The translations under genes and the position numbers were made by a program. Positions 2,203 through 28,072 of a stretch of 41,331 nucleotides of DNA are shown piece by piece. This stretch comes from an uncultured Bacilli bacterium (GTDB lineage Bacteria > Bacillota_I > Bacilli_A > RFN20 > CAG-288), in the NCBI GenBank assembly GCA_934700375.1, contig CAKUXT010000001.1, positions 1 through 41,331 of the forward strand, given 5' to 3'. Each line of letters begins with the position of its first letter. Position 1 is the first letter of the stretch. The notes below the pieces were generated by a model. That model saw nothing but the letters and a program-made list of their open reading frames with translations. It made no database searches and was not told the origin of the DNA.

Positions 2203-4857
2203 TTATTCTGCGACTTCTGTTTTGTTCTTCTTTTTGAATGTGGTCTTACGGATGAAGATATCGGCAAGATAGATGATGACAGAGACGAGGAAGAAGATCA
2301 TCATTGTCGAAGAGTAACTGAACTGATTCAGTTCACTGTCGCTCATCTTGTACTCATATTCGCTTCCGTTAGCATACAATGTGCCAGAGGAAGAACGGGT
2401 GAGTTCACTGAGCAAGGTATTGTCTCCTGTGGTAGGAAGGACATCGTACTCTTTAGAGAAGTTATAGTAGAAGGTGAAGGTGTTTGTTTCGACTTTCTGA
2501 TAGTTGCCACTTGCATCCTTTTCAGAATAGGTGGCTTCTAAGGTGTACTTTCCGACTTCGCTGACAGGAAGATTGATGTTGTAGGTCTTGTTCTTGGAAT
2601 CATAGATGAGATCTATCTCGCTTGCAGTTCCTTTCGGATCTGTCGCTTTGACATGAACTGCACCATCTGTGCTTTCCTTGTCGACAAGGATAGAGACACC
2701 CATTGTCGTACCGTTTGAACTGGTTGTAAGATCCATCAAGGTAGTGACGCTTCTATCAGGCAATGTCTGATAGATCGCATTCTTCAAGAAGGTCTTTCCG
2801 GAAGAGGAGTTGCGGAAGTCTTTTGTCCAATCAGTGGTAAGATTGCTGGTGAAGGAAGAGACTTTTCCTTTTCCGAAATTCCAATAGGCGTATAACGGAA
2901 TCGTAGCGACACCGGTCACATTGTTCTTTTCATCTTTCTTGATGTATTGAATGGTGAGGACCGTTGTGGAGCCGCCTTTGATACGGCAGTAGTTGTAACC
3001 ATGTAAATCAGGCAACGTCTTGACGTTTGTGAGAACCGGATCATCAGAGGTACGATACTGGATCTGAGCGCTCTGGTTGATTTCGGTGTTTCCGATTTCA
3101 CCGGAGACGGAAGTGAGCATGACGTCGATCAAGCCGGATGCAGTACGGCAGAAATAGTATGTGCCGTTTCCAAGAGTGCTGAGCTTGGTCAGAATCTTTT
3201 TTCCTTCTTCGCTTGAGATGTTGATGAAGGAACAGATGATGTTGTCTTTTGCCATGTTGTTGACGATTCTTTCAAGTTCGGAATCGGATTCACTAGGCTG
3301 ACCATCTGTAAGAGTGATGACATTCTTATATTCGCATTTGGAGTTGTAGACCTGCTCCTGAGCCTGTCTTAAGCCAGCTCCTAATCTTGTACCGCCGCCT
3401 AAGGAGATGCTGTTGATTGCATTGATGATCGTCGATTTGTTCTTGATGGAAGTCATCGGCTGATGAATCTTGACGCTGTCGGAGAAGGAGATGATGGAGA
3501 CATAATCCTTGTCAGAGAGGACATCAAGACACTTGATGGCACCCTTCTTTGCAATGGTGAGTCTGTCATCGGAAGACATAGAACCGGAGCAGTCGATGAG
3601 AAGGACAAGGGCCTTTGCATCATCGGACTCATACTGGACAGGAAGCATGTCGTGATAGCTTGCGATGCCTTCTGAAGAACCATTGGTGTAGGTTGCACCA
3701 TAGGTCAGAAGACTCTTTCCGTAACTATAGACAGCAGTGTTGAGGTTTTCTGTAAATTCGCTGTGATGGTTGAGGTTGAGAACGTTGATGTTGTCCAATA
3801 CGATTTCATCGTACTTCAATAAGGATTCAAGCTTGTAGGGGACATTGGCGGTATCGACATAGGATGAGATCTTTGCGTTATCGGTATAGCCGCCGACATT
3901 CTTGAAGGCGGTAAGATCATCCTGTGTGTTTCCGATGAACAGAACGCTGAAATCGTCTTTGTACTCCTGTGTGAAGGAGACGGTGTTGTTTTCTTTGAAG
4001 GTGTCGCTGTCAGCTTTGACTTCAATCTGGTAGTCGACAGCACCCGCTTTTTCACTGGTGACATAGAAGGTGATGACATTGAGTCCAGGTGCCAAAGTCG
4101 TTTCTTTTTCTTCTTTGAGTTCACCGGAACTTGTCAGGTCAATCTTGACGTTCTTTTCGTTAGAAGACTGAATCATCGCCTTGACGGTCTGTTCTCTGTT
4201 TGTGAAGCAGTGATCGACATAGTCGACACTTCTGATGCTGACTTCGTCAGAGACGGTGTCTTCAAGATAGACGGCATCAAGAGAGATGTTGTCGTTGAGG
4301 ATAGTGGAGATGGTATCGATTGCGGAATTGTCTGTCTCTACACCATCGGTGACAAGGACCATCTTTTTGATGCTGCCATCGGTATAGAGATCTTTGGTGA
4401 AGTTGAGAGCAGAGGAGATATCGCTTGCGCTTCTGACAAAGTCAGGATGCTTGCTACTATCGAAGGCTTCTGAGACGCTTTTCAGCTTCTGGCCTGGTTT
4501 TACAAGAACGAAGCTGTTTTCTCCGAAGCAGACGACACCGCTTGAAGCAGAAGCAGAAGTTGACTTCTCATAGATGTTTTTGACTGTCTCATCGATCTTT
4601 TCGACGTTGGTCTTTTCGGAATCAGAACAATCTACAAGGATGTACATCTCGGTCTTATTGCTGTTTTTGATGACCTGAATATCGCTGAAGGCAAGGGAGA
4701 GAGTGAAGGAGAGAACAATATGGAGGCATAAGGAGAGAATGTTGTTGAGTCTCTTTCTTTTTGCTTTTGGAATCAGGAAGAAGATGACAACGGATAATAC
4801 GACTAAAGGGATGGCGACAAAGAGGAGATAGGGATAGGTGATTTTAATATTGTTCAT
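2203..4857 (-). CDS. Membrane-anchored protein with two von Willebrand factor A (VWA) domains (BatB-like); last gene of the MoxR operon
   Basis: The ORF is 884 aa and its ATG overlaps the upstream gene by 14 nt. It has an N-terminal TM pair and a C-terminal TM (MMIFFLVSVIIYLADIF). Two DxSxS MIDAS motifs are present (ILVDCSDSE and LLIDCSGSMSS). Confidence 0.8.
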   Translation of the reverse strand: MNNIKITYPYLLFVAIPLVVLSVVIFFLIPKAKRKRLNNILSLCLHIVLSFTLSLAFSDIQVIKNSNKTEMYILVDCSDSEKTNVEKIDETVKNIYEKSTSASASSGVVCFGENSFVLVKPGQKLKSVSEAFDSSKHPDFVRSASDISSALNFTKDLYTDGSIKKMVLVTDGVETDNSAIDTISTILNDNISLDAVYLEDTVSDEVSIRSVDYVDHCFTNREQTVKAMIQSSNEKNVKIDLTSSGELKEEKETTLAPGLNVITFYVTSEKAGAVDYQIEVKADSDTFKENNTVSFTQEYKDDFSVLFIGNTQDDLTAFKNVGGYTDNAKISSYVDTANVPYKLESLLKYDEIVLDNINVLNLNHHSEFTENLNTAVYSYGKSLLTYGATYTNGSSEGIASYHDMLPVQYESDDAKALVLLIDCSGSMSSDDRLTIAKKGAIKCLDVLSDKDYVSIISFSDSVKIHQPMTSIKNKSTIINAINSISLGGGTRLGAGLRQAQEQVYNSKCEYKNVITLTDGQPSESDSELERIVNNMAKDNIICSFINISSEEGKKILTKLSTLGNGTYYFCRTASGLIDVMLTSVSGEIGNTEINQSAQIQYRTSDDPVLTNVKTLPDLHGYNYCRIKGGSTTVLTIQYIKKDEKNNVTGVATIPLYAYWNFGKGKVSSFTSNLTTDWTKDFRNSSSGKTFLKNAIYQTLPDRSVTTLMDLTTSSNGTTMGVSILVDKESTDGAVHVKATDPKGTASEIDLIYDSKNKTYNINLPVSEVGKYTLEATYSEKDASGNYQKVETNTFTFYYNFSKEYDVLPTTGDNTLLSELTRSSSGTLYANGSEYEYKMSDSELNQFSYSSTMMIFFLVSVIIYLADIFIRKTTFKKKNKTEVAE

Positions 4858-6715
4858 AAGCGTAGACCCCCCAATCGGCTAAGAAGAAGATAGCAGCACA
4901 GATGACGATAGGAAGAAGGTTATCGAAGATGCTGTTTCCTTTTTTGACTTTAGTGTCGATATTCAAAGAAAGCTTCTCTGTGTCGACAACATGCGGAACT
5001 CTTTCATCGTCAGGATAACGAGAATAGAGATCGATTGTCTTTTCGCTGCCATCCTGGTAGGTGACATTTGTCTGATAGGTTCCGATTTCATCAAGCGTAT
5101 AGGTGAGATAGTCTTTGTTTGTGATAGAGAAGGTCTCTGTCTTTCCACTCGGTGTCTTTAAAGAGACGGCTTTTAAGTTGTTGGATAGCGTGACTTTGAT
5201 ATCGTCTCCGACTTCATATGCGTATTTGTCCATGATCTTCGGATTGGTATACATGAATGCATTTCTCATCAATACACTGTAGTCATACTGCATCGGAAGA
5301 TCGGAATCGTGAAGGTCGAAGGAGAAGACGACTTCTCTTTGCTGATTATCTGTCTTTCCGGCAAAGACAAACGGAATGTTGTCATAGCTGAGAATGGTTG
5401 TGAAGTCGGAAGTCAGAGAGTAACGGACATATTTTTTGACGGCGATATCGTTATGTGCGATATTCGCTGTCAAAGAATTGTAGAGCAAGGAAGAGGTGTT
5501 GTCTGCATAAGTGAGATGGACAGCCTCATCTGCTTCGACTGCTTTCTGAGCGATGAATCCAGTACCTTGTAAAGTGGTGGAAGAGTTGAAGAAGATGATG
5601 GAACCGGATTTAGGAAGAGAGGAAGGAGTGAAAGAATCATAGATATAAAGGTCGTAGTTGATAAGAGGATTGTAGTTATTTGTGCTGACGACTGTGACAT
5701 CGTTCTTATAGTCGGATTTGTTGTTGATCGCGGAGAGAATCGCTTTGATATAGAAGGGATCATCGGAGACCAATAAGACTTTTGCCATAGCGGTATCGCT
5801 GTTGTTATAGACGATCATCTCATTGTCTTCAGGAAGAGAATCCTCATCGACGATCTGTGCTTCGACAGAGGAGATATCTTTGTATTTTCCTTTGACATCC
5901 TTGTATTCGATCTTGAAAGCGTAAGGTGTTGCTTTCTTGACGGAATACTTTCTTGTTCCGATTTCCTCTTTGTTGACAAAGAAACGGACAGTCAGATTCT
6001 TGTCAGAGAGATGAGAAAGGACGCTTGCGTTCATAGAGAGGGTGCTGTCCTCATAGGAATAAGTGAGATCGGATAAGGAGTAATTGTCTTTTTCGATACT
6101 GCAGTCGATGAGATTGATGTTGTTCAGATTCTCGACTTTCTTATCGGTGAGAAGATAACATAAATTGATATTGTTGTTTTCAATGACTTCCTGGGCTTTG
6201 GAAAGAGAATCGCCGAGATCGTTCTTCAGATTCTCAGCCTTCAAAGAATCGACATAAAGGGAAAGCTGGTTTTTGTTTGTGACATTCTGGAAGACTACTC
6301 TGGTCTCTTTTCCGGAATAGACCAAAGAAAAAGCAGAACCGTTTTTGCTTTCTTCTGCTATTTTGTTGATCTCTTTCTTCGCTTTGTCAAAACTTGTCTC
6401 TTCTCCGTCTTTCATGTTCATGGAAGCGGAGCCATCCAATATGAAAAGAACATTGTCAGTCTTGTTGGGAGTCGTGATGATAGGATGGGCAAGGCAGATA
6501 GCAAGAGCGGAAATCGTTGCAATCTGCAGAAGCAAAGCAATCAGGTGTTCGAAGGTGTGAAGGGGGCTTCTCTTCTTCAAAAACTTTTTGCTTAACTCCC
6601 ATAAATAAGTGGAAGGAGTCGTTGATTCTTTGTATTTGTTCTTCAATAGATAGATGATGATAAGGACAGGGATTGCAAGAAGAATCAGAAATGCATAGGG
6701 ATAGAGAAAACTCAT
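4844..6715 (-). CDS. BatA-like VWA membrane protein (aerotolerance-regulator N-terminal domain type)
   Basis: The ORF is 623 aa. Its N-terminus MSFLYPYAFLILLAIPVLIIIYLLK is typical of BatA_N. It carries the MIDAS motif FILDGSASMN and a C-terminal TM (LLPIVICAAIFFLADWGVY). An ATGA start/stop overlap links it to the DUF58 gene. Confidence 0.8.
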   Translation of the reverse strand: MSFLYPYAFLILLAIPVLIIIYLLKNKYKESTTPSTYLWELSKKFLKKRSPLHTFEHLIALLLQIATISALAICLAHPIITTPNKTDNVLFILDGSASMNMKDGEETSFDKAKKEINKIAEESKNGSAFSLVYSGKETRVVFQNVTNKNQLSLYVDSLKAENLKNDLGDSLSKAQEVIENNNINLCYLLTDKKVENLNNINLIDCSIEKDNYSLSDLTYSYEDSTLSMNASVLSHLSDKNLTVRFFVNKEEIGTRKYSVKKATPYAFKIEYKDVKGKYKDISSVEAQIVDEDSLPEDNEMIVYNNSDTAMAKVLLVSDDPFYIKAILSAINNKSDYKNDVTVVSTNNYNPLINYDLYIYDSFTPSSLPKSGSIIFFNSSTTLQGTGFIAQKAVEADEAVHLTYADNTSSLLYNSLTANIAHNDIAVKKYVRYSLTSDFTTILSYDNIPFVFAGKTDNQQREVVFSFDLHDSDLPMQYDYSVLMRNAFMYTNPKIMDKYAYEVGDDIKVTLSNNLKAVSLKTPSGKTETFSITNKDYLTYTLDEIGTYQTNVTYQDGSEKTIDLYSRYPDDERVPHVVDTEKLSLNIDTKVKKGNSIFDNLLPIVICAAIFFLADWGVYAYEQY

Positions 6716-7587
6716 TTGATAATCCCCCTTTGTATCATTTTGTTCAGGAATAATTCTTTCATGTCATCGCCTGTGGAGAGGAAGAGATATTCGGCTTCTC
6801 TTGAATGACAGAAAGAACTCGTTTTTTCGGTGACGAATTTCAGTGCCTTCTTATATGCGTTGAGAACGTCTCTATTGATGTTGTCCTTGTAGAATTTGTT
6901 GTCGTTTTCACTATCGTGAAGCACGAACTTTCCTCTCAGGTTGGGATTGATCTCCTCTTCACCCAACAGCTGGATGCAGAGAACATCTCTCTTCTTTCCT
7001 CTTAAGTAATCGATCGCATCGGTATAGTTGTTATCGGTGAGGAAATCTGAAATCAGGATGGATTTGCCATCTCCGTATCCGACAGTGGAACGGATAATAG
7101 CATCGGAGATGAAGGAATCGCCTTCGAATATGATGTTGTTGAGCTTGTTGACGGAGTTTAAGAAGGCATCCTTTCCGATGACGTTCTCTAAGACAGGAAC
7201 AGCCTGCTTTCCTTTGATGACATAGATGTTGACTTTATCCATATCCTTCAAGGAGAGATAACTGAAAGCAGTGGCAAGACGGATTGCGTATTCTCCCTTG
7301 TTGAAGTACTTCATGGAGGTAGAACCGTCGATATAGATTCTAGTCTGCATCTGTCTCTCATCGAGATAGAGTTTCAGATACATCTTTTCGAACTTGCCGT
7401 AGATATTCCAGTCGATCTTGGTGACATCATCGCCTTCCATATAGTCTCTGTAATCGGCAAATTCACAGGACGAACCATATTTCTTAGATTTATGGTTACC
7501 ACCGAAAAGACCGGCGACATTATCTTTTACCGATAAAGAGAAAAGTTCGATTTGCTGAAGAAACTGTTCGTCGATCGCTTGTTTCAT
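6712..7587 (-). CDS. DUF58 family protein (VWA-like; usual partner of MoxR)
   Basis: The ORF is 291 aa. It contains GGNHKSKKYGSSCEFADYRDYMEGDDVTKIDWN followed by IYIDGSTSM, the DUF58 signature. It lies 3 nt downstream of moxR. Confidence 0.88.
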   Translation of the reverse strand: MKQAIDEQFLQQIELFSLSVKDNVAGLFGGNHKSKKYGSSCEFADYRDYMEGDDVTKIDWNIYGKFEKMYLKLYLDERQMQTRIYIDGSTSMKYFNKGEYAIRLATAFSYLSLKDMDKVNIYVIKGKQAVPVLENVIGKDAFLNSVNKLNNIIFEGDSFISDAIIRSTVGYGDGKSILISDFLTDNNYTDAIDYLRGKKRDVLCIQLLGEEEINPNLRGKFVLHDSENDNKFYKDNINRDVLNAYKKALKFVTEKTSSFCHSREAEYLFLSTGDDMKELFLNKMIQRGIIK

Positions 7588-7590
7588 ATT

Positions 7591-8577
7591 TTACTTTTTC
7601 TTTCTGATTTCTTTTGTCAATAAGCCGATGACTTTATCGACAGTAAGATTATCGTTAATTGCGTTGTAATTGATTTTGATTCTGTGTCTTAAGACAGGAT
7701 AGGCTAAGGCATCGATATCATCATAGGAGACATTGTAGTTGCCGTGGATCAAAGCACGGATCTTTGCACCGGTGATAAGAGCCTGGCAGGCACGAGGAGA
7801 AGCACCATAACGGATATACTTCTTTGCAGTATCGCTGGCATCATCAAGTTCGGAATGTGTGCTGTGGACAAGTTCCATTGCGTATTCAAGAACCTGAGGG
7901 AGACAAGGGACATCCTGAGCGAGCTTTCTCATATGGAGAATGGTTTCGCCATCGACGACCTTTGTCGCATTTTCGTTCATGTTCTTCTGTGTCATGTTGA
8001 CGATGTCGCCGAGCTCTTCGACGTTCGGATACTCCATGATGACCTTGAACATGAAACGGTCCATCTGAGCTTCAGGAAGCGGATAAGTACCATCCTGTTC
8101 AATCGGGTTATCAGTTGCTAAGACGAAGAACGGCTCAGCCATCGGGTAAGTGACGCCGGAAACTGTGACTTTGTGTTCCTGCATGACTTCGAGCATGGCT
8201 GCCTGTGTCTTCGGGGTAGCACGGTTGATTTCATCAGCTAAGATGATCTGTGCGAAGATAGGTCCCTTCTGGAAGGTCGTGACCAAGTTTTCGTTTTCGT
8301 CTTTACGGATGATGTTTGTACCAGTGACATCGTTCGGCATAAGGTCCGGTGTGAACTGAATACGGGAGAAAGGAAGGTTGAGCGTCTGTCCTAAGGAACG
8401 GACAAGACGTGTCTTACCAGTTCCAGGGACACCTTCAAGCAGGACGTTGCCGCCTGCGATGACGGCGATGACAACGTCATCGATGACTTCTTCCTGACCG
8501 ACGATATCTTTGTGCAACTCTTCTTTGATCTTCTTGACTGATTCACTGAATTCAGTGATTAATTCTTGATTTTCCAT
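7591..8577 (-). CDS. moxR: MoxR-family AAA+ ATPase
   Basis: The ORF is 328 aa, with Walker A GVPGTGKT and Walker B IILADEINRATPKTQAAMLEVMQE. The length is typical of AAA_3 proteins, and the C-terminus has the RYGASPRA motif. Confidence 0.93.
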   Translation of the reverse strand: MENQELITEFSESVKKIKEELHKDIVGQEEVIDDVVIAVIAGGNVLLEGVPGTGKTRLVRSLGQTLNLPFSRIQFTPDLMPNDVTGTNIIRKDENENLVTTFQKGPIFAQIILADEINRATPKTQAAMLEVMQEHKVTVSGVTYPMAEPFFVLATDNPIEQDGTYPLPEAQMDRFMFKVIMEYPNVEELGDIVNMTQKNMNENATKVVDGETILHMRKLAQDVPCLPQVLEYAMELVHSTHSELDDASDTAKKYIRYGASPRACQALITGAKIRALIHGNYNVSYDDIDALAYPVLRHRIKINYNAINDNLTVDKVIGLLTKEIRKKK

Positions 8578-8628
8578 TGTGATAACCTTTCATTGTCTAT
8601 TAGTAGTCGTGTAAGCCGTGATTCTTAG

Positions 8629-10341
8629 TTAAGGATTGGTCTTGCCATCTCCAGGATCTTTTTCGCTTCCATAGAGAGAGTGGAAGTAGTCTTCCAAGAT
8701 ATCACCTGTCTCTTCGTTTCCATTTTCTTTGTTGTCTTCGCCGGCATCATTGTGATAGCCATCGATGACATCGCCGTATTCGGAATAGCCGTTCTGATCG
8801 GTGTAGACCTTGTCACTGCTTCCGTATTTGGTATCGCCGTTACCGCCAGAGGCACCGGTACCGCTTTGAGAGCCGTTGCTTTCGCTGTCGCCCTTGCTGT
8901 TTCCGCCGCCTTCGGAGTCGCCTTCTTCGCCTTTTCCGTCGCCATCTCCTTCGGAGTCGCTGTTATCGCCGCTTTCGCTGTTGTCTCCGTTGTTTTCTCC
9001 GCCTTCGCCTTCAGAATTCTTATCGCCTGCAGAGTCAGCATCATCTCCGGAATTGTTTCCGTTGTTGTTTTCTCCACCGCTGTTCTGATTTTCGCTGTTG
9101 TTCTGATTCTCACTGTTGGAGCCGCTTCCGCTTCCTCCTCCTCCAGGATTGATCAAAGATTCCATATAGGCAATGACCTGGGCTGCAAGATCGCTGTTTT
9201 CCTGTTGTGTCTGCATACACTGGCCGATTTCGTTGATGGCGTGTTCAATGGCAGTGATAGAGTCAGCTTTAGCCTGATCTTCGTTGATACCTTTTTCGGT
9301 ATCACCGCTGAGGAAGGCACTGAATTTCTTGTTGATGGAATCGAGGCTCTTATAGAGGTTTTCCATAGAAAGATACAGAGTGTCATCTTTTCCGACAACT
9401 GTCTTTCCATCGGAATCATCCATGACTGCATCTAATGCGGAAGTGATGGATTCATCGATTGCTTCGATATGATCGTATAAAGCTTCGCCGGTATAAGTGG
9501 TTCTAGGACCGAAGTGCTTCTCTAACTGCTGTAAGATAGAGATAGCAGTTTCCTGGTCACCGCTCTTGATGGCTGCGCCAAGCTTTGCAAGAAGATCGAC
9601 TTTACTGTTTTCTAAGGCTGCGCCAAGTTCTTCTCTGGAATTGGCACGGTCAAGAGCAGCATTGACCTTACCTACTGCAACGATGACTTTGTTCATACGG
9701 GACTGAATATCAACATCGTCCTGTAAGTCTTTCAAGAGATCTGTGAGAATCTGATTGAGTTCAGCCTTGAAGGCTTCGCTTGCATCGGAATTGTTGATGA
9801 TGTTATGAATGTCATCAATGATGTCTTCTGTCTTATTGTTGAAGTCGTCCGGATTAGGTTTGTTGTTTTTGTTTGTCTCATGGATGACATTCGGTGTGAA
9901 GAAGCTTGCTGTGAACAAGCTGGCACCGAAGACAAGAGCAGGAATGTTGATGACGGCAAGCTTGAAGGGAAGCTTCTTGACATCCTTTTTGGAGAGCTGA
10001 GCCTTTGCATCTTCTCTCTGCTTCTGATAAAGGAATCCGTCTTCGTTCTTAAAGGCGACCATGCTGGTGACCTTCTCTTCCATCTTGAAGTCCTTGTCGA
10101 TTCTTTCTGCAATCTTTTCATCATTCGGTTTCTTTAAGAAGAACAGAGTGAGGAAGAGTGCAACTAAGACAACGGCACCGATGATGATGCTGTAGTAGAA
10201 CGGGAAGTTGGCTCCGAACATTCTTGTGAAAAGAATGATGAGGCCTGAAACTGTCAATCCGCCTGCTAATGAGATCAAAGATATTTTCAAATAGAATTCG
10301 CGCATCAGTTTCGCTTTGAATTTTTTGAAGTTTTCGTTCAT
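8629..10341 (-). CDS. Membrane protein with a helical middle region and a long acidic G/S/N/D/E low-complexity tail; first gene of the MoxR operon
   Basis: The ORF is 570 aa with an AGGAGG SD upstream of the ATG at 10341. It has three hydrophobic segments in the first ~150 aa, then an Ala/Leu/Asp-rich helical region, then about 165 aa of GGGSGSGSNSENQN...GDNSESGDNSDSEGDGDGKGEEGD. I recognise no family. Confidence 0.7.
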   Translation of the reverse strand: MNENFKKFKAKLMREFYLKISLISLAGGLTVSGLIILFTRMFGANFPFYYSIIIGAVVLVALFLTLFFLKKPNDEKIAERIDKDFKMEEKVTSMVAFKNEDGFLYQKQREDAKAQLSKKDVKKLPFKLAVINIPALVFGASLFTASFFTPNVIHETNKNNKPNPDDFNNKTEDIIDDIHNIINNSDASEAFKAELNQILTDLLKDLQDDVDIQSRMNKVIVAVGKVNAALDRANSREELGAALENSKVDLLAKLGAAIKSGDQETAISILQQLEKHFGPRTTYTGEALYDHIEAIDESITSALDAVMDDSDGKTVVGKDDTLYLSMENLYKSLDSINKKFSAFLSGDTEKGINEDQAKADSITAIEHAINEIGQCMQTQQENSDLAAQVIAYMESLINPGGGGSGSGSNSENQNNSENQNSGGENNNGNNSGDDADSAGDKNSEGEGGENNGDNSESGDNSDSEGDGDGKGEEGDSEGGGNSKGDSESNGSQSGTGASGGNGDTKYGSSDKVYTDQNGYSEYGDVIDGYHNDAGEDNKENGNEETGDILEDYFHSLYGSEKDPGDGKTNP

Positions 10342-10407
10342 ATGATGTTTCCTCCTTTATTTATAAAGAAATAGCCGCCAGATAATGTGGTTCTGGAAAC
10401 GGCAAGA

Positions 10408-10436
10408 ATTATAAAATGGAATATCGATATTTTAAA
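10408..10436 (-). promoter_or_regulatory. Candidate sigma-A promoter of the MoxR operon
   Basis: On the minus strand this reads TTTAAA (10436-10431), a 17-nt spacer, then TATAAT (10413-10408). It lies about 65 nt upstream of the ATG at 10341. Confidence 0.4.
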
Positions 10437-10439
10437 AAG

Positions 10440-10472
10440 AGCTCTTATCATGAAAAAGCTAATGATAGAGCT
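10440..10472 (-). terminator. Hairpin (possible insulating terminator) just upstream of the MoxR operon promoter
   Basis: An 11-bp stem with one bulge pairs agctct(t)atcat with atgatagagct around a 10-nt loop. On the minus strand CTTTTTAAA follows; on the plus strand atcatttt follows. No coding gene feeds into it. Confidence 0.3.
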
Positions 10473-10533
10473 ATCATTTTGAAAAAGTGGCGAAAAACTA
10501 TAAAAAAGTGATTGTTTTTACTAAGCGTGTAAA

Positions 10534-10727
10534 AATGTAAGCGGTTTTAAGTTTGAAGTCGAAAGGACAGACTTGATCTGCAAAAATTATATATAAAAAT
10601 CTTTTTTAAGTTTATTTTAAGGTTCAATTTTACGCTTTTTGGCAAGAAACATTAAAATAAGCTTAAAAAATATAAAAATGATAAAAGACAAAAGTAAAGT
10701 AAACAATTCTTGATAACCGCTTACATT
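10534..10727. repeat. Perfect 13-bp inverted repeat pair flanking a 168-bp AT-rich segment
   Basis: aatgtaagcggtt at 10534-10546 is the exact reverse complement of aaccgcttacatt at 10715-10727. Confidence 0.9.
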
Positions 10728-10885
10728 CAATTCTTTTTCTCAATTTAGATTTTCGACAAAATCATTGATGTTTTTAATGTTTTGAATTGTTTTTCATTGA
10801 AAAACATAACTAATTTTCAAAAACCAAAAACATATTTTTCATCTTTTTCAAAAAAAGATATAAGTTTCAGAACAAAATGAAATAG

Positions 10886-10913
10886 TTGTCCTCTGATTTC
10901 CTTATTTTATAAT
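10886..10913 (+). promoter_or_regulatory. Candidate sigma-A promoter of lipoprotein gene 1
   Basis: TTGTCC (10886-10891), a 16-nt spacer, then TATAAT (10908-10913). The SD GGAGGA is at 10927-10932 and the ATG at 10942. Confidence 0.45.
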
Positions 10914-10941
10914 TTCATTTGTTTTTGGAGGATTACAAAAC

Positions 10942-13900
10942 ATGAAAAATGTCAAAAAATCAGTATTGTTATCTCTTATCTCCTTGGCTTTGATCTCCTG
11001 TGGCGAAAACACATCGGCTTCCGATGTGACCACTGCCACTCGTCCAACTGATAAGGTTACAAATACTGAGACAGCAAAACCGATTGAGACTGCTACACCG
11101 GATACAACAGTCGGCCCGGATACTACTATACCGGATACAGACAGTGAACCTAGCACAGACAGCGAACCTAGCACGGATGAAGATGCCTGGGGCGAAGAAA
11201 TCAGCTCTTTGATGAGCAAGCATTTAGGCGGAGTTGTTCTTCCCTATATTTCCTTAGGAAGAAACCCTGAAGGTTCCTGGACAAGAAATTCCGGAGACTA
11301 TGGTATTCTCACAGTCATCGGAAGCAAGTTCAATAAGGACCTTCTTACCACTGCTACCACTGCTTTTGAAGCAAAGGGATGGGCTTGTACTGCTACAGCA
11401 ACAACTTTCACAGGTGAATTGAAAGACAAACATGTCAAAGTCGAATTGACCAGCGATCAGTATGGATATGCATTGCTCACTGCTGTTTATGATGAACCCT
11501 TTGATGCGACAAGTGTCGATAGCTGGGATCAGGATACTTTGGATAGCATGCGCGATCATTTGGGCGGCCATACGCTTCCTTTCATTTACACAGGTATGGC
11601 AGTTCCTTTCACACAGTGGTCCAATACGACCAAGACCTTCTCCATCGACGGCGGAAAATGGGATGACAGCGTCCTTGATCTTGCTCTTGCTTCTTTGACG
11701 AAAGCAAACTACACCAATGTCAAGAAGACAACAGAGAGCTGGGGTGTTGTCGTCAGCGGTGATTTCACCTTTGACGATGGATGCTCTGTATCCGTCTCTC
11801 TTTATAAATCAGGTGCGGAGACTGTTCCTTTCCCGTATCTTTCTGTCTTCTACAAAGAAGCCTACAATCCTGTCGAAGGCGCAACATGGCCTAATGTCAT
11901 TTCCGATCGTTTCAATGATAGCTTCGATGGTCATCAGCTCCCTTATCTCTATTTAGGCAGCGATGTTCTTTCTTCCGATTGGAACTCCACAGTCACCAAG
12001 CTTACAATTAGCGGCGGTGCTTTTGATACCCGTATGTTTGCTTCGGCAAAAGCTACACTTGCAGCCGATGGATATGACTGCACGGATGAGATGGATGGCA
12101 AGGGTGTACAGAAGTCCCTCATCGCTTCCAAGAAGATGAGCGAGGGCTGTACCATGGTCGCTGTATTATTTGGCAACTCCAAGTTGGCTAAGCTGGATGT
12201 TTACTACTATTCTCCTTTAAGCATTCCTGCTGATGCTACTGAATTTGATGAAGTCGTCAAGGCAAAGATGGACAAATATCTCGATGGTCACAGCGCAGAA
12301 GTTCCTTTTGTCTATTTAGGAGCGGATGTCTTGGATGTTTCCTTTGATGATTATGATGATGCTTTGGAAATCGTCGGAGACAAGTTCAATGGCGCCATGA
12401 TCGACAATGCAAAGAAATCCTTCGCTGATGCCGGTTATACCGTTTCCATGGCAAGCGATGAATCCTATGGAAGAGTCTTCACTGCTACAAAGACTTTATC
12501 CGATAAGTGTGTCATTACTGCAAAGATGGAATCAAGCTATGGAACAAAGACTGCAGTTCTTTCCCTTTCCTGTGTAGAAGGCTATAACCCTCCGAGTGCA
12601 GGAAGCACAGAAGCAGCATGGAGCGAGACTATCAAGGGTGCCATGACACTTGAATTGGGTGGCCATGTCCTTCCGTATTTCTATCTCGGCACAAAAGCTG
12701 CTACCTTAAAGCAGAGCAAGAACACCATCGAACTTGTCGGTGGTTCTTATAACAGCCTGATCCTTGCTTCTACAAAGGAAGCTCTTAAGACAATGGAAGG
12801 ATTCACTTGGACCTTCACTGATGGTGTCGATAGAATCGATGGAACAGGTGTTGATAAAGACGGCAACAAGATCACCATCGCACTTTACAAGAACTCTAAG
12901 AACAAGGTCTATTTCAAGGCCACATATCTGAAAGCATTTGTCGTTCCGACAAATGGTGCCTGGAGCGAAGCCATCCAGAGCGCAATGACTACAAACTTCG
13001 GTGAGGTTTTGCCTTTTGTCTATCTTGCCATAGATGCTCCTGAAGCAGGTGAATTCTATGATGGAAGATTAGATATCAAAGGCGGAACATGGGATGATCA
13101 GATGTATGACCTTGCAGAAAAGGCGTTCAAGGCTTCCGGATTCACTCTTAGCACCGGAACCAGCGAAAATGATTCTGGTGAAATGGTCACTGCTTATAAG
13201 GAAAGCAATGGAAAACTGATCCGTCTTGCTGTCTATAATTCCAGTGATGTTGCTATGTATAGAGCCTGTGTCGATGAAGCTCCGACATATCCTACTGATC
13301 AGACCGATTGGTCTTCTGCTATCAAGACTGCTATTGAAGGATATATGGGAACCACGAATACGATTCCGTATTTCTATACTGGTGAAAGTACACCTACTAC
13401 ACGTCAAAGAACATGGCCCGGAAACGGAAAGATCTATTTGCAGATCTCTAACCTCAAGAACTGGAATCAAAACTATACATTGAATGCAAAGAAGGTTTTG
13501 GAAGCTGCTGGATGGACAACAACTTTCTATGCAGTTCAGGGAGACACCAGCTCTGCTGCAGGTGCTAAATTAGTCGAAAAGAATACTTATAGCGATGGCT
13601 CCAGTGTCGTCCTTACAATCAAGGCTGGATATTCAAATACCATCTATATCGCCTATCAGAAACCATTCACTCCTAGCCTTGAAACAAGTTGGGCTCCGAC
13701 TGTTCTCAATGCGATGGAATCCAATTTGAATGGCCATGTCATTCCTTATTTCTATATGGGTACAGATGAACCTGCCTTCCAGTTCGACAGAACCACACAT
13801 TGCTTGACGGTTGTCGGCGGTGTCTGGAATGAAGAAATCTATGGCTTAGCCGAAAAGGCTTTGAAAGCAGATACAAGCCTTGATTGGAATATTCTTTATG

Positions 13901-14058
13901 ATTATTCTGTCGGCCAGTATTCTTCCGGCAAGACATTGATTGCGGTTGCTGAAGAAAAAGATACCGGCAAGCATCTCACCGTCAAGATCTATAATGCAAC
14001 ATCCGGTACAAACGAATACGGTGTCCAGGCTCCTGTCATGGAAGTCTATTACAACTAA
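10942..14058 (+). CDS. Giant surface lipoprotein built from eight ~115-aa repeat modules (paralogue 1)
   Basis: The ORF is 1038 aa, with a signal peptide and lipobox LALISC (Cys20). A T/P/D/S-rich linker follows, including a tandem DSEPST x2 encoded by an 18-bp DNA repeat at 11150-11185. Eight modules begin at about aa 83, 195, 316, 434, 560, 674, 790 and 917. Each starts W-x3-(I/L)-x2-M-x3-L-G-G-H-x-LP(Y/F)-x-Y-(L/M/T)-G and contains A-x3-(F/L)-x3-G-(W/F/Y). Confidence 0.85.
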   Translation: MKNVKKSVLLSLISLALISCGENTSASDVTTATRPTDKVTNTETAKPIETATPDTTVGPDTTIPDTDSEPSTDSEPSTDEDAWGEEISSLMSKHLGGVVLPYISLGRNPEGSWTRNSGDYGILTVIGSKFNKDLLTTATTAFEAKGWACTATATTFTGELKDKHVKVELTSDQYGYALLTAVYDEPFDATSVDSWDQDTLDSMRDHLGGHTLPFIYTGMAVPFTQWSNTTKTFSIDGGKWDDSVLDLALASLTKANYTNVKKTTESWGVVVSGDFTFDDGCSVSVSLYKSGAETVPFPYLSVFYKEAYNPVEGATWPNVISDRFNDSFDGHQLPYLYLGSDVLSSDWNSTVTKLTISGGAFDTRMFASAKATLAADGYDCTDEMDGKGVQKSLIASKKMSEGCTMVAVLFGNSKLAKLDVYYYSPLSIPADATEFDEVVKAKMDKYLDGHSAEVPFVYLGADVLDVSFDDYDDALEIVGDKFNGAMIDNAKKSFADAGYTVSMASDESYGRVFTATKTLSDKCVITAKMESSYGTKTAVLSLSCVEGYNPPSAGSTEAAWSETIKGAMTLELGGHVLPYFYLGTKAATLKQSKNTIELVGGSYNSLILASTKEALKTMEGFTWTFTDGVDRIDGTGVDKDGNKITIALYKNSKNKVYFKATYLKAFVVPTNGAWSEAIQSAMTTNFGEVLPFVYLAIDAPEAGEFYDGRLDIKGGTWDDQMYDLAEKAFKASGFTLSTGTSENDSGEMVTAYKESNGKLIRLAVYNSSDVAMYRACVDEAPTYPTDQTDWSSAIKTAIEGYMGTTNTIPYFYTGESTPTTRQRTWPGNGKIYLQISNLKNWNQNYTLNAKKVLEAAGWTTTFYAVQGDTSSAAGAKLVEKNTYSDGSSVVLTIKAGYSNTIYIAYQKPFTPSLETSWAPTVLNAMESNLNGHVIPYFYMGTDEPAFQFDRTTHCLTVVGGVWNEEIYGLAEKALKADTSLDWNILYDYSVGQYSSGKTLIAVAEEKDTGKHLTVKIYNATSGTNEYGVQAPVMEVYYN

Positions 14059-14086
14059 AAATTTCAGACTGAATATGCATAATAAA

Positions 14087-14112
14087 GCGGCTCAGCAATG
14101 AGCCGTTTTATT
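14087..14112 (+). terminator. Rho-independent terminator of lipoprotein gene 1
   Basis: The stem pairs gcggctca with tgagccgt (7 bp plus a G-U pair) around the loop gcaa. The T-rich run ttttattatgctttttt follows. Confidence 0.75.
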
Positions 14113-14452
14113 ATGCTTTTTTAAAGATGGAAGAGCTTACATTTATTCTAACCAATTCTGTACTTACTGATATTCGTTTGAGCTATTTTAATAAAATATT
14201 AAGAAAATGGTGATGAAATTTAAAGAAAACTGAAAAAACACAAAGTGGAAAAAATTCAATCAAGCGCTTACAAAAAGCCTTTTATTTTCATCACTTTTGT
14301 TCGAATTGATGAAAATTGGCTGATTTTGTTGAAAAAGCTGATGAAATTCTAAATTTTTAATACTTTTTGGCTGTTTTCTCATTGAAAAACATGTTTTAAC
14401 TTCCAAAATCAAATATCAATAATTGTATATACCCATTTGGGAGGTAAACGAT

Positions 14453-17400
14453 ATGAGAAAAAATAAAATCATTCTTACGGCTCTGCTTGCACTCGTCCTT
14501 GGAGGCTGCGGAACCAATACGAATTCTTCGGTCTCTAAGCCAACAGAATCGGCTACGGCCAAGGACACAGGTACAGAAATAGCACCTGTCACAGAAGGTC
14601 CGGTTTCTACTGACACAACCAGTGATTCTGGTTTTGTCACAGACATCATGGATAGTTCCACTGAATCCAGTTCAGAGGAGTTTGAAGAGACATGGAATGA
14701 TGATGTCTATGATTTGATGATGGTACATTTAGGAGAACAGGTTGTTCCCTTCTTTGACATGGGAAAGAATGTCGAAGCAAAGTGGGTTGCCAAGACCGGT
14801 CTTCTCACTGTCATGGGATCTAACAGTCTCAACAATAAGAGATTGCTGGAAGTCAAAGCCTTGTATGAGGAAAAAGGATGGACAGGAACAGAAGTCACAG
14901 ATACCTCTGAATCTTTGACGGTGACAAATGAAGAACTGCATCTTTCTGCTGTTCTCTCTGAAGATAAGTATGGTTATGTTCAGTTTGCCATCACCTATGA
15001 TGAACCGTTTGATGCAACAAAGGCAAAAGGCGAATGGAATGATGATGTCAAAGCAGCTTTCAATACTTATTTGGATGGCCATATCCTTCCTTATGTCTAT
15101 CTTGGTACGGATAACAACCAGTATTTATCCTGGGCTTCTGGCTCAAAGATTCTCACTATTAGAGGAAAGAAGTGGGATGATTCCATTGCTGATGCTGCAA
15201 AGAAGGCTTTTGGCGATTTTCAGCTCGAAACAAGTGTCGATTCTTATGATAGAACAGTCTCTGTCTTTAAGAAAGTGTTCTCTGACGGCTGCAGTTTCTC
15301 TGTCAAAGTTTCACCTACTAGCAGCAAAGACAATCCGAAAGCCAACTATATCATCACCTATTCTGAGGTCTTTGACGCAAGCACAGTCACAGAATGGAAA
15401 CAGGATGTCAAAGCCGATCTTGCAACCTTACATAATCACGAGCTCCCCTTTATCTATTTAGGAACAAAGGCTCCGACAAGCAAGAAGGGAACTAATACTG
15501 TTACAATCACCGGAAACAAATTCGATGTCGAAGTCATCACGACAGCTCAGGCTCAGTTTGAGAAGGCGGGATGGGAGACTTATAAAGGGACGGGTACATA
15601 TGGTGATGCTGTTTTCGCACTTCATGTCTTTGATGATGGATGCACGATAACAGCCTCTGTCCAGCAGTCTTCTTCGTCTACTTCCAGTGCCTATAATACA
15701 CTGGTCTTTGCGAGGTACGATAAACTGGTACCCTCAACTGATGTCACTGATTGGACGGATGCTGCAAGAGCCAACATGATCTCGAATCTTGGCGGTCATC
15801 TCATTCCGTTCAGCTTCATCGGCTCTACAATGACCAGCAAAGTCGATACAAGCACTAGAGCAGTGACAGTCACAGGGGATGCTTTCAATCCGACAATGGT
15901 CAGCAATTTCAAGGCTGTATTGGACAAAGATGGATGGACAGCAAAGTATTCGACAAATAAATACGGCAGAACCTTGGTGGCATCGAAAGAATTTGAGGAT
16001 GGTACGGTTTCTTTGACAATCGGCGCTCCGTATTCTCTTTCTTCGAAGATCAGCGTTGTCGCATCCTATCGTGAAAAGTTTGATGTTCCTTCTTCCGGCG
16101 GATGGTCAGAAACAGACCTTCAGGCGATGAAGGATGCCTTAGGCGGATATTCTATTCCGTACTTCTATATGGGAACAGATGCACCGGTTGTCTCTGCCTC
16201 TAAGACTGTGGAAGGCTCGGTTACTATCACTGGCGGACTTTGGAATGATCAGATCACAGACCTGTTTGATGAGGCGATCAAGGCCGATACGGCATTGACA
16301 TGGACGCTCTTGGATGATGGATCTTTAACTAATAAAATCATTTATCATGGAAAGGATGAGAAAGGAAATCTCCTTGTTCTTACTTTGACAATTCCAACTG
16401 TTGCCACAAAGAAAACATCGCTATTGATTCGTTATAAGGCTGCTTATGATCCGACGATGATGACAAAGTGGGATGATGATACAATCGCTGCGATGAAGAC
16501 AAATCTCAACGGACATGAGATGCCGTTTGTCTATTTAGGAAGCAAGGCAGTCGCTGCTAAAATAAGTTCGACTGGCTTCACTATTGAAGCTGAAGACTAT
16601 GCTACATTCGATCAGAGAATCCTTGACGAAGCTAAGAAGACTTTTGAAGCTGCTGGATTCACGACGAATACCAAATTGAACACCTACTATTATTCATGCC
16701 TTGAAGGAACAAAGACTTTCGATGATGGCTATACAGTTCGTTTTGTTTTGGAAAAGGCGGGTACAGCTGAATTGGCTGAGCCGCGTCTTGTCATGTATCT
16801 CGATAAGCCATTAACCGATACGAAGGCGGAAGATTATTCTTGGGGACTTACAATAGCTGATCAGACCAAGCTCGATAACTTCTTAGGAAGCTATAAGGCT
16901 CCTGATGTCTTTATGGGTACTGGAGCAACAGTAAAATGTTCTGTGTCTCAAGTCACAAAAGGCAACAACTACGCAAGACTCTATGCCTCCTTCAATAAGA
17001 CAGTTGCGCCACAGAACAACGGCTATATTCTTCAGGCTAAGAAAGACCTTGAAACACAGGGCTTCACGATGACCAAATATGTCATCAACAACGGTTATAC
17101 TGGATCCGGCATGGAATTCAGCAAGAAACTTGATGATGAAAATGAAATGAAAGTCGCTGTCAGAATGTCTTCTTCTAATATGGAGCTCTATATCTCCATC
17201 GTTCCGATCTTCACGCCTACGGAAAAAACCGCATGGAATGATAGAATTACTGCTCAAATGAAGTATTACTTTGATGGCTATGTTCTTCCTTTCTTCGATA
17301 TTGGTGACGAATATCCGTCTGTAAAATTCGATTACACAAAGGGTACACAGACATTGGTTTTGCAAAGTGCTACATATGATGACTCTATCTTCACTTCCGC

Positions 17401-17614
17401 AGAAGCTGCTTTTAAGGCAGATACGACCTTTGGCGGAACATGGGAATGCTCGGTGTTTGAAGAGAAATCGACTGATAAGATGGAACCGTTAAAGAGCTTG
17501 CGTGCAAGATGCTATAACAAAAAGACGAAGAAGACAATGACAATCTTAATTGCTGCCTCTTATACTGGCGACAATATGAGCAAATACGTCAAGGCAACAG
17601 TCAATTACTTCTAA
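14453..17614 (+). CDS. Giant surface lipoprotein built from eight ~115-aa repeat modules (paralogue 2)
   Basis: The ATG at 14453 has GGGAGG 8 nt upstream. The track start at 14423 is a TTG without an SD. The protein begins MRKNKIILTALLALVLGGC (lipobox, Cys19), followed by a T/S/E-rich linker. Eight modules share the anchors of paralogue 1 (ETWNDDVYDLMMVHLGEQVVPFFDMG ... TAWNDRITAQMKYYFDGYVLPFFDIG). Confidence 0.85.
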   Translation: MRKNKIILTALLALVLGGCGTNTNSSVSKPTESATAKDTGTEIAPVTEGPVSTDTTSDSGFVTDIMDSSTESSSEEFEETWNDDVYDLMMVHLGEQVVPFFDMGKNVEAKWVAKTGLLTVMGSNSLNNKRLLEVKALYEEKGWTGTEVTDTSESLTVTNEELHLSAVLSEDKYGYVQFAITYDEPFDATKAKGEWNDDVKAAFNTYLDGHILPYVYLGTDNNQYLSWASGSKILTIRGKKWDDSIADAAKKAFGDFQLETSVDSYDRTVSVFKKVFSDGCSFSVKVSPTSSKDNPKANYIITYSEVFDASTVTEWKQDVKADLATLHNHELPFIYLGTKAPTSKKGTNTVTITGNKFDVEVITTAQAQFEKAGWETYKGTGTYGDAVFALHVFDDGCTITASVQQSSSSTSSAYNTLVFARYDKLVPSTDVTDWTDAARANMISNLGGHLIPFSFIGSTMTSKVDTSTRAVTVTGDAFNPTMVSNFKAVLDKDGWTAKYSTNKYGRTLVASKEFEDGTVSLTIGAPYSLSSKISVVASYREKFDVPSSGGWSETDLQAMKDALGGYSIPYFYMGTDAPVVSASKTVEGSVTITGGLWNDQITDLFDEAIKADTALTWTLLDDGSLTNKIIYHGKDEKGNLLVLTLTIPTVATKKTSLLIRYKAAYDPTMMTKWDDDTIAAMKTNLNGHEMPFVYLGSKAVAAKISSTGFTIEAEDYATFDQRILDEAKKTFEAAGFTTNTKLNTYYYSCLEGTKTFDDGYTVRFVLEKAGTAELAEPRLVMYLDKPLTDTKAEDYSWGLTIADQTKLDNFLGSYKAPDVFMGTGATVKCSVSQVTKGNNYARLYASFNKTVAPQNNGYILQAKKDLETQGFTMTKYVINNGYTGSGMEFSKKLDDENEMKVAVRMSSSNMELYISIVPIFTPTEKTAWNDRITAQMKYYFDGYVLPFFDIGDEYPSVKFDYTKGTQTLVLQSATYDDSIFTSAEAAFKADTTFGGTWECSVFEEKSTDKMEPLKSLRARCYNKKTKKTMTILIAASYTGDNMSKYVKATVNYF

Positions 17615-17622
17615 AATCTATG

Positions 17623-17664
17623 CAAAACAAAATCACTCCGCAAGGATTGATTTTGTTTTGTTTC
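17623..17664. terminator. Bidirectional rho-independent terminator between convergent genes
   Basis: A perfect 13-bp stem pairs caaaacaaaatca (17623-17635) with tgattttgttttg (17648-17660), plus an inner tcc/gga pairing. T runs sit on both sides. Confidence 0.85.
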
Positions 17665-19142: not shown

Positions 19143-19153
19143 AATATTATCTC

Positions 19154-27747: not shown

Positions 27748-28072
27748 TAACTAAATAATGCGGTGTGGAATTTTGAATGATAAATAATGGCTTACGTATT
27801 ATGTTTTCAATCATTTTTTAAGATATATGGACATATTAAGCCGCTAAGTGAAGCTCAAAAAAGCGGTTACAAGTTTCTTGAACATTAATGCATCATTTCG
27901 TACTAATTAATAACAAAACGTTGCTTTTTTTTAATAAAACATCAGTTTTTTTCTTTTTTTTGCAAAAGGGAACTTTTAAAAAACAGGCTCACTGTTTTTT
28001 TCTTTTTTAAAAAATAAATATACTCGTTATGTCGATGCATTTCGAAAAATAAAAAGAATGGAGGATTTCTTT

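Follow-up and report, generated by a model that had tools for sequence, protein, structure and literature searches.

Tandem giant lipoproteins of an uncultured Bacilli bacterium are built from a new module and recur beside a MoxR/DUF58/VWA operon

The 41,331-nt stretch at positions 1-41,331 of contig CAKUXT010000001.1 (assembly GCA_934700375.1), referred to here at its full length as the window, comes from an uncultured Bacilli bacterium of the GTDB order RFN20, family CAG-288, and encodes two giant lipoproteins in tandem, p1 (1038 amino acids [aa]; 10942..14058, plus strand) and p2 (1053 aa; 14453..17614, plus strand). Each consists of a lipoprotein signal peptide, a stalk and eight copies of a module that is a new domain, outside the curated sequence libraries and solved structures searched. 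Proteins carrying the module are narrowly distributed, and their genes recurrently adjoin an operon that encodes a transmembrane (TM) protein with an acidic tail (hereafter TM-acidic), a MoxR ATPase, a DUF58 protein and two VWA proteins. Judged by their sequences, p1 and p2 are very probably surface lipoproteins built of this new domain. We give about even chances to the wider proposal that they are old paralogues within a small gut-Bacilli lipoprotein family and act as scaffold or binding partners of the adjacent VWA envelope machinery.

The original prediction, made from the DNA letters without database searches, had given each protein eight modules of about 115 aa, and this periodicity held under formal testing. 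The anchor LP(Y/F)x(Y/F)(L/M)G occurs eight times per protein at a spacing of 112-127 aa, with LP(Y/F) at aa 100, 212, 333, 454, 577, 690, 808 and 934 of p1 and at eight equivalent sites in p2. A hidden Markov model (HMM) trained on the eight p1 modules alone tiled p2 with eight end-to-end modules at 15.7-78.6 bits, compared with 4.4 bits for the best of the 200 shuffled p2 sequences that served as the null, and an iterated module HMM detected 8 modules (9 in the most distant members) in 27 of 27 family proteins, with per-module E-values mostly between 1e-11 and 1e-39. In p1, all on the plus strand, module 1 spans aa 80-188 (11179..11505; HMM E 4e-27) and ends in YDEPFD, followed by module 2 (aa 192-309; 11515..11868; E 3e-36), module 3 (aa 313-426; 11878..12219; E 1e-31), module 4 (aa 432-549; 12235..12588; E 4e-34), module 5 of the 'KT/KADT..W' subtype (aa 557-667; 12610..12942; E 6e-30), module 6 (aa 671-780; 12952..13281; E 7e-28), module 7, the most divergent and position-specific across the family (aa 787-910; 13300..13671; E 9e-26), and the C-terminal module 8, of the 'KADT..W' subtype (aa 914-1038; 13681..14055; E 4e-31). 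The p2 modules, on the same strand and scored with the p1-only HMM, are module 1, again ending in YDEPFD (aa 78-187; 14684..15013; 47.5 bits), module 2 (aa 192-308; 15026..15376; 78.6 bits), module 3 (aa 312-423; 15386..15721; 67.4 bits), module 4 (aa 431-544; 15743..16084; 54.5 bits), module 5 of the 'KADT..W' subtype (aa 548-666; 16094..16450; 70.4 bits), module 6 (aa 670-788; 16460..16816; 73.7 bits), module 7, the most divergent (aa 794-921; 16832..17215; 15.7 bits), and module 8 (aa 925-1053; 17225..17611; 52.7 bits). Within the window only p1 and p2 carry the module, apart from a marginal signal (E 0.006, 11 bits) in an open reading frame (ORF) at 1-588 on the plus strand, where the left edge leaves only the C-terminal end of a gene; a stretch of it (...IVEAYKKSLTEKGFTMSV..VRLTFASDGGVFYLFVTK) resembles the half of the module formed by helix 2 and the beta-meander, and by this likeness the ORF may belong to a distant relative of the lipoprotein family.

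No named family accounts for the module, in agreement with the original prediction. Pfam-A 2025 returned no family for p1 at E ≤1, and its sole match to p2, LPAM_1, was below threshold; all NCBIfam 20.0 matches to either protein had E ≥0.038, far short of the cut-offs, with the better ones on the signal-peptide/stalk region. Nothing exceeded the Pfam threshold in the two- and four-module relatives tested or in the 1119-aa protein encoded divergently from the family member P0018, precomputed Pfam annotation was empty for 25 of 25 relatives, and the PADLOC defence models matched none of p1, p2, TM-acidic, DUF58 and the VWA proteins, and MoxR only as a generic weak AAA hit. A profile of 16 modules run against all PDB sequences returned only de novo designed proteins and the PASTA repeats of PknB, at E 0.008-0.1. 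The latter, the sole natural-protein matches, resemble PknB/PrkC PASTA in a beta-alpha-beta-beta half-module (ITG..A...L..aGw plus strands), but they are non-significant (3py9, E 0.035; 3m9g, E 0.1), cover about 55 residues, half a module, and were recovered by neither Pfam nor Foldseek; membership of the PASTA family was therefore rejected.

Structure prediction led to the same conclusion. AlphaFold2 (AF2) modelled full-length p1 from a 27-sequence alignment with a mean predicted local distance difference test score (pLDDT) of 85.2, each module near 90, and a predicted TM-score (pTM) of 0.52, and modelled a single module (module 2; p1 aa 190-310, 48-module alignment) with a pLDDT of 96.6 and a pTM of 0.88. 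In the latter model an alpha+beta sandwich is formed by helix a1, a long loop with LPYxYLG, and the elements b1-b2-a2-b3-b4-b5-b6. Foldseek searches of PDB and BFVD with it found nothing at E ≤1e-3; the top PDB neighbours were DcrB, BamC, YwmB, MTC28 and PsbP, all with TM-scores ≤0.46. Because the best of them, DcrB (6e8a), reached only E 3.4e-3 and TM-scores of 0.44/0.39 (probability 1.00, root-mean-square deviation [RMSD] 6.2 Å; PsbP 4rth, E 0.28), no fold family was assigned, and the full-length model gave only meaningless matches (TM-score about 0.06). As modelled, the fold is a generic two-layer alpha+beta sandwich that recalls the Mog1/PsbP/DcrB or helix-grip domains of envelope lipoproteins. 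DcrB/Mog1-PsbP-like and BamC domains (6e8a, 3tgo_D, 2fpn) are likewise small alpha+beta sandwiches in lipid-anchored envelope proteins, but those proteins have one or two domains and align at TM-scores of 0.37-0.44 and an RMSD of 4-7 Å with no sequence signal. The invariant positions of the module are the W, P, Y and G of its core motif, and the conserved positions of the family alignment include no catalytic-type invariant residue.

The genes, their starts and their export signals are equally well defined. p1 starts at ATG 10942, 3' of a GGAGG ribosome-binding site (RBS), and p2 at ATG 14453, 3' of GGGAGG, with a distance of 7-8 nt in both cases; the alternative p2 TTG at 14423 is without a GGAGG-type site. 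Orthologues of p1 (54-96% identity) and of p2 (P0015-P0017) agree with these ORFs, and P0015 (1053 aa) and P0016 (MKKNKIILTALMALVLGGCG...) have the same kind of start as p2. Since an RBS is found only at ATG 14453 and these orthologues begin alike, the 1053-aa form of p2 (MRKNK..LGGC), the corrected start of the original prediction, is the right one. The p1 signal peptide, MKNVKKSVLLSLISLALISC, occupies 10942..11001 and has the lipobox LISC with Cys20, and that of p2 occupies 14453..14509 and has the lipobox LGGC with Cys19. Both (MKNVKKSVLLSLISLALIS-C20 and MRKNKIILTALLALVLGG-C19) combine a basic n-region and a hydrophobic h-region with a lipobox of the form [LVI][ASTVIG][GAS]C within about 15-25 N-terminal residues, and the lipobox cysteine is ≥90% conserved in the alignment of 27 family proteins. 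The stalks that follow, whose richness in T/S/P/D/E had been noted, comprise about 55 residues with a content of these residues of about 70%; that of p1 (aa 21-79; 11002..11178, plus strand) reaches 73%, is predicted to be disordered (pLDDT <50 over residues 1-75 of the full-length AF2 model) and contains the sole tandem DNA repeat detected by Tandem Repeats Finder, an 18-nt unit present twice (TDSEPS TDSEPS; 11137-11172). Stalks of p1 orthologues are hypervariable, with only 34% identity.

Each gene also has its own terminator and a long AT-rich stretch upstream, as first described. An intrinsic terminator with an 18-bp stem and a T run follows p1 (14077..14116, plus strand), and an AT-rich hairpin terminator (17622..17661; -20.4 kcal/mol, z -7.1 against shuffles) separates p2 from a convergent small TM gene. 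Upstream of p1 lies an AT-rich divergent intergenic region of 600 bp that extends to the TM-acidic gene (10342..10941); GC is 0.31 across 10001-11000, and promoter-like sites in the intergenic region were no more frequent than expected by chance. An identical 14-mer, TCATTGAAAAACAT, occurs at 10794-10807 and 14379-14392, about 135 nt 5' of the p1 start codon and about 61 nt 5' of that of p2; it is perhaps a promoter or operator element common to both genes. As a conserved operator it was rejected: it is retained only in the near-identical strain at locus L018 and partly in L005, and is missing from farther orthologous loci (L and P numbers denote related loci and family proteins, respectively).

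The family to which p1 and p2 belong is small. A word-indexed search of 5.8 billion clusters found 25 relatives of 960-1325 aa, a HMMER search of 1.84 billion cluster representatives with the module profile found 212 proteins at E ≤1e-3, 135 of them at E ≤1e-30, and a metagenome scan added four further loci only. When a protein was counted as complete if it had an N-terminal lipobox and its last module at the C-terminus (n=128), 68 proteins had 8 modules, 22 had 9 and 19 had 7; 12 of the 128 formed a separate subfamily with two modules and a length of about 335 aa, and a few had 3-5 modules. An N-terminal lipobox was present in 137 of 181 family proteins, the rest being mostly fragments, and all complete architectures are lipoproteins. 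The genomic matches lie in gut metagenome-assembled genomes (MAGs) titled Bacilli bacterium, Bacillales bacterium or Candidatus Enterosoma sp., the last being GTDB genus UBA7642 of order RFN20, family CAG-288 (PMC8035907). A deficiency in peptidoglycan is predicted for members of CAG-288, and a cell wall for most RF39 members (PMC10868615); with the predicted deficiency, lipoproteins would be exposed. Some family contigs were binned as Alistipes onderdonkii (L002), Oscillospiraceae (L003/L015), Bacteroides uniformis (L011) and Prevotellaceae (L013). These are probably mis-binned, since where the operon is visible (L002 and L013) its MoxR is 84-95% identical to that of the window. The literature searched on RFN20/RF39 lipoproteins, and on MoxR with lipoproteins, yielded no description of the family.

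Both genes are under purifying constraint while diverging faster than their surroundings. Between the window and the near-identical strain L018 (dS, the synonymous divergence, about 0.22), the ratio of nonsynonymous to synonymous divergence (dN/dS) was 0.09 for p1 and 0.13 for p2, and between the window and L020 it was 0.14 for p1 (dS 0.60); we conclude from these values of 0.09-0.14 that p1 and p2 are real, functional genes. MoxR, DUF58, the VWA proteins, the response regulator and the kinase gave 0.03-0.08 in both comparisons (dS 0.06-0.48), and TM-acidic 0.10 against L020 (dS 0.54). At L006, an orthologous locus farther removed, the counterparts of p1 and p2 share 63-64% and 55-56% identity with them, versus 95% for MoxR and 96.5% for enolase, which shows that p1 and p2 evolve faster than neighbouring genes. 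Variation is uneven along the chain: among p1 orthologues modules 1-4 are 67-69% identical, compared with 59-63% for modules 6-8, and family-wide module 1 is the best conserved and module 7 the least.

With regard to the origin of the pair, whole-gene duplication, as originally proposed, is upheld by the collinear alignment of p1 with p2 from end to end (28% identity). It is an old event, given that each paralogue has its own orthologues in other MAGs (54-64% identity for p1, 44-56% for p2). The octapeptide YDEPFDAT, with which module 1 of either protein ends and which had been taken to point to duplication of the whole gene, is neither a trace of that duplication nor evidence of a recent one: (Y/F)DEPFD at the junction of modules 1 and 2 is the best conserved motif of the family (in 27 proteins whose identity falls as low as 22%, E185 is invariant and both P186 and D188 are ≥90% conserved), and as a search pattern it recovered loci that are 24% identical. 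Shuffling of modules had also been suggested. Module 5 of p2 does match module 8 of p1 best (Smith-Waterman score 188, versus 149 for p1 module 5), but modules 1, 2, 4, 7 and 8 are positionally stable across subfamilies, p1 modules 5 and 8 give the top off-diagonal score within p1, and the p2 orthologue P0016 has the same pattern; the likeness reflects an old 'KADT..W' subtype common to positions 5 and 8, and the shuffling model found no support. The internal duplications that produced the modules are ancient as well, given that DNA identity between modules (60-80%) is confined to motif-coding stretches of 20-60 nt and that the 18-nt pair in the stalk is the single tandem repeat; at the protein level modules are 20-25% identical to one another. 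A phase- or size-variable antigen with recombining repeats was considered and rejected, as there are no near-identical DNA repeats or phase-variation tracts and module number is steady (mostly 7-9).

The operon beside p1 contains the complete core of an MRP-type MoxR/DUF58/TM-VWA (Bat-like) set as recognised by Pfam and NCBIfam, namely an AAA_3 MoxR, a DUF58 protein and a BatA-type double-TM VWA protein. All its genes are on the minus strand: TM-acidic (8629..10341; 570 aa with three TM segments, a long helical stretch and some 120 aa of tail rich in G/S/N/D/E; without a family in Pfam or NCBIfam) is the first gene and divergent from p1, followed by MoxR (7591..8577; Pfam AAA_3, E 3.9e-60), DUF58 (6712..7587), the BatA-N/VWA membrane protein BatA623 (4844..6715) and VWA884 (2203..4857), which has two VWA domains with DxSxS motifs as well as GATase1-like and Ig-like regions. 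The DxSxS motifs lie at aa 76 and 422 of VWA884, at aa 94 of BatA623 (DGSAS, a metal ion-dependent adhesion site [MIDAS] motif) and at aa 87 of DUF58 (DGSTS). VWA884 and BatA623 each have two N-terminal TM segments split by a basic loop and one C-terminal TM segment, after which VWA884 ends in a basic tail, and from this layout the VWA/MIDAS domains are predicted to lie outside the membrane, as are the helical region and acidic tail of TM-acidic (ectodomain isoelectric point 4.1); MoxR and DUF58 are without TM segments. The outer face of the membrane would thus be common to the giant lipoproteins, the VWA ectodomains and the acidic tail.

Comparison of some 30 related loci pointed to this operon as a recurrent partner of the family. 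In a first arrangement (type A) family genes are divergent from TM-acidic/MoxR/DUF58/BatA/VWA, as in the window and L001, L002, L005, L006, L020, L032 and L033. In type B (L010, L013 and L014) a second, paralogous TM-acidic/DUF58/BatA/VWA operon, with a VWA protein 43% identical, is followed by at least three tandem family genes. L010 shares its MAG with L001, and L014 with L006; MoxR was not detected at L010 or L014, the latter having no room for it between DUF58 and TM-acidic, and their operon may rely on MoxR from the first locus. In type C (L008 and L017) the order is co-directional, from lipoprotein through TM-acidic (two copies in L008), MoxR, DUF58 and BatA to VWA, with the TM-acidic start of L017 1.4 kb downstream of P0013. 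In type D (L021 and L023-L025) distant two-module lipoproteins and an orthologue of VWA884 (35-37% identity, E 2.5e-165) are encoded convergently. In total about 13 loci of types A-C and four two-module loci of type D are operon-linked. A TM-acidic homologue adjoins family lipoproteins at L001, L002, L005, L006, L008 (twice), L010, L013, L014, L017, L020, L032 and L033, and it is perhaps this protein that links them directly with the MoxR operon. The original prediction had correctly placed p1 and p2 between the MoxR-VWA operon (upstream, minus strand) and a convergent sensor operon, but it had favoured the sensor operon as the likely regulator and treated the MoxR-VWA operon as a mere neighbour; this weighting has to be reversed, because sensor genes are syntenic only in the orthologous loci L006 and L018. 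At L021 the two-module lipoprotein gene lies at 2689-3702, and its flank opposite the VWA884 orthologue encodes an unrelated T/S-rich lipoprotein of 825 aa without a Pfam family.

The recurrent adjacency suggests that the lipoproteins and the operon work together, and we consider functional coupling of p1 and p2 to the VWA/DUF58/MoxR system slightly favoured by the evidence. In the mechanism we propose, the lipobox cysteine would anchor p1 and p2 to the membrane, with the disordered, acidic, T/S/P-rich tether serving as a spacer, so that both would face outward and serve, without enzymatic activity, as scaffold or binding proteins. They would be recruited or organised by the VWA/MIDAS ectodomains; candidate sites of contact are the proximal modules, which are better conserved, and either the stalk or the acidic DEPFD junction found throughout the family, while the faster-evolving distal modules might point to the gut environment. 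Cytoplasmic MoxR and DUF58 might assemble or remodel the membrane partners, a role that has been proposed for MoxR-VWA pairs generally (PMC3893208). We regard direct contact between MIDAS sites and acidic ligands on the lipoproteins as unlikely, and rather unlikelier still the full scheme in which the MIDAS sites have the eight-module lipoproteins as their extracellular ligands or clients within a bacterial integrin-like surface complex, assembled or remodelled by MoxR from the cytoplasm, in a gut lineage of reduced genome that is possibly wall-less. If true, the MIDAS-client scheme would give the obscure MoxR-VWA operon class its first defined partner, together with a new domain family.

Several observations speak against a partnership with the VWA machinery. 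A divergent family pair at L029 has no VWA gene within 10 kb, L016, L012, L015 and L009 have no VWA, DUF58 or MoxR gene in their available flanks, the four-module relatives at L026-L028 are unlinked to the operon, and the p1 orthologue at L031 lies away from the operon and adjoins a DDE transposase. Given these exceptions, linkage of the family to the operon is frequent and survives rearrangement, but is not obligatory. Types A and B could be one duplicated block and not independent evidence, and the topologies described above were called from hydropathy and the positive-inside rule only. To our knowledge, MRP-type MoxR/VWA systems have no known function, partner or mechanism. The transposase gene at L031 (DDE_Tnp_1; 8249-9778, minus strand) is directly upstream of the p1 orthologue, which suggests relocation of the latter by an insertion sequence; this ORF had been tried as a diverged TM-acidic gene and proved to be the DDE transposase.

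The most serious competitor, which we hold possible but doubtful, is that p1 and p2 are autonomous adhesins or proteins facing the host, glycans or phages, like the multigene lipoproteins of mycoplasmas, and that adjacency to the operon reflects ancestry or shared regulation. The family is indeed multigene, with at least five copies per MAG (L001 plus L010; L006 plus L014), p1 and p2 are the fastest-evolving genes of their locus, with a hypervariable stalk and more variable distal modules, several arrays are distant from any VWA gene, and the MAGs are gut-derived. However, the operon linkage outlasts the rearrangements of types C and D and reaches the two-module subfamily, module number holds at 7-9, and the modules are old and diverged, without the near-identical DNA repeats or phase-variation tracts of typical variable adhesins. 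A structural role, in which eight-domain rods form a coat or spacer, an S-layer-like or glycocalyx-supporting layer of fixed thickness around cells with a reduced or absent wall, fits the stereotyped module count of the family, the occurrence of one member MAG in a family predicted to be peptidoglycan-deficient, and the YfhO and Wzy_C glycan genes in the window, and the pTM of 0.52 for a 1038-aa chain suggests a defined inter-module geometry; yet many diverged paralogues per genome would be unusual for an S-layer and most RF39-type relatives are predicted to be walled, and we rate such a coat as distinctly improbable.

Far less credible is the idea that the modules are helix-grip or Mog1/PsbP-like pockets with which an auxotrophic bacterium of reduced genome captures host lipids or other hydrophobic ligands. 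What speaks for it is that the weak neighbours found by Foldseek belong to envelope lipoproteins and to helix-grip or hot-dog folds (DcrB, BamC, PYR1/PR-10, FabZ), but all matches have TM-scores ≤0.46 and E ≥3e-3, helices of 10-12 residues in a 115-aa domain leave scant room for a cavity, and no transporter is consistently adjacent. That the genes are an artefact, whether chance ORFs, pseudogenes or cargo of a mobile element, is refuted: their lack of annotation is the one point in its favour, whereas constraint extends over more than 1000 codons, intact orthologues exist in many MAGs, the AF2 models are confident, synteny is kept with an enolase at 96.5% identity, and PADLOC gave no matches.

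Among known systems, the nearest functional analogy is the bifidobacterial PFNA cluster (pkb2-fn3-aaa_atp(MoxR, MRP subfamily)-duf58-tgm), in which a MoxR of the MRP type co-evolves, as do DUF58 and a polytopic membrane protein, with a fast-evolving FN3 surface adhesin (PMC6803598). There too MoxR and DUF58 stand beside a fast-evolving multi-domain surface protein in a gut commensal, but that protein is made of FN3 domains and lacks a lipid anchor of the lipoprotein kind, a transglutaminase stands in place of VWA proteins as membrane partner, the cluster also has a Ser/Thr kinase, and its proteins have no sequence relationship to the p1/p2 module. The AAA_3 MoxR, DUF58, BatA double-TM protein and VWA domains found here are shared with the Bat operons of Bacteroides aerotolerance and of Borrelia (BB0170-BB0176), and the VWA domain of the BatA-like BB0173 was shown experimentally to be periplasmic (PMC5700661), which agrees with the topology predicted here. 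Described Bat operons, however, have BatC/D/E (TPR, SH3) in place of giant repeat lipoproteins or TM-acidic, and p1 and p2 are not Bat proteins.

Mollicutes, reduced-genome relatives of Bacilli, have surface lipoprotein families, for example LppA (TIGR03490), that are large and form tandem paralogous arrays. The match of p1/p2 to LppA/TIGR03490 reached E 0.26 only, over the signal/stalk region, with no homology to the module; unlike these families, p1 and p2 have no phase-variation repeats, a standard genetic code and a fixed eight-module plan. Repeat-built surface lipoproteins are already known as a kind of protein, whereas the libraries and literature searched describe neither the domain that serves as building block nor its fixed eight-module plan, and neither the restriction of such a family to uncultured gut Bacilli nor its repeated association with MoxR/DUF58/VWA operons. 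The module domain merits a new family entry, and p1 and p2 are, by their sequence features, likely to be major surface antigens of a little-known member of the gut microbiota. MoxR/DUF58/VWA operons are widespread in bacteria and have been connected to tolerance of stress and to interaction with the host, and an operon that repeatedly travels with specific surface proteins offers a concrete and testable idea of what its targets are.

A few other genes of the window were inspected. A 331-aa Cys-rich protein (..HCKGNVCRSCCCQGW..; 1164-2159, plus strand) is encoded convergently with VWA884 and has no Pfam match at E ≤1e-3; it was tried as a two-module lipoprotein on account of a position like that of the L021 gene, and is unrelated to the module. 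Two overlapping ORFs of 322 and 354 aa at 28058-29984 (plus strand) are without a Pfam family. Downstream of p2 and convergent with it lie the small TM gene and the sensor genes, which encode one response regulator and two tandem LytS-type (PF06580-type) histidine kinases of 617 and 632 aa (18345-22902, minus strand), an arrangement of regulator and kinases that is kept in L006 and L018. The C-terminal half of the response regulator aligns to OmpR-family regulators (RprY, model positions 6-217), and the first kinase (19154-21007, minus strand) has no detectable HATPase_c domain. In the comparison with L018 this kinase gene has a dS of 0.064, compared with 0.20-0.22 for all its neighbours, which suggests a recent recombination or sweep in the first LytS-type kinase only.

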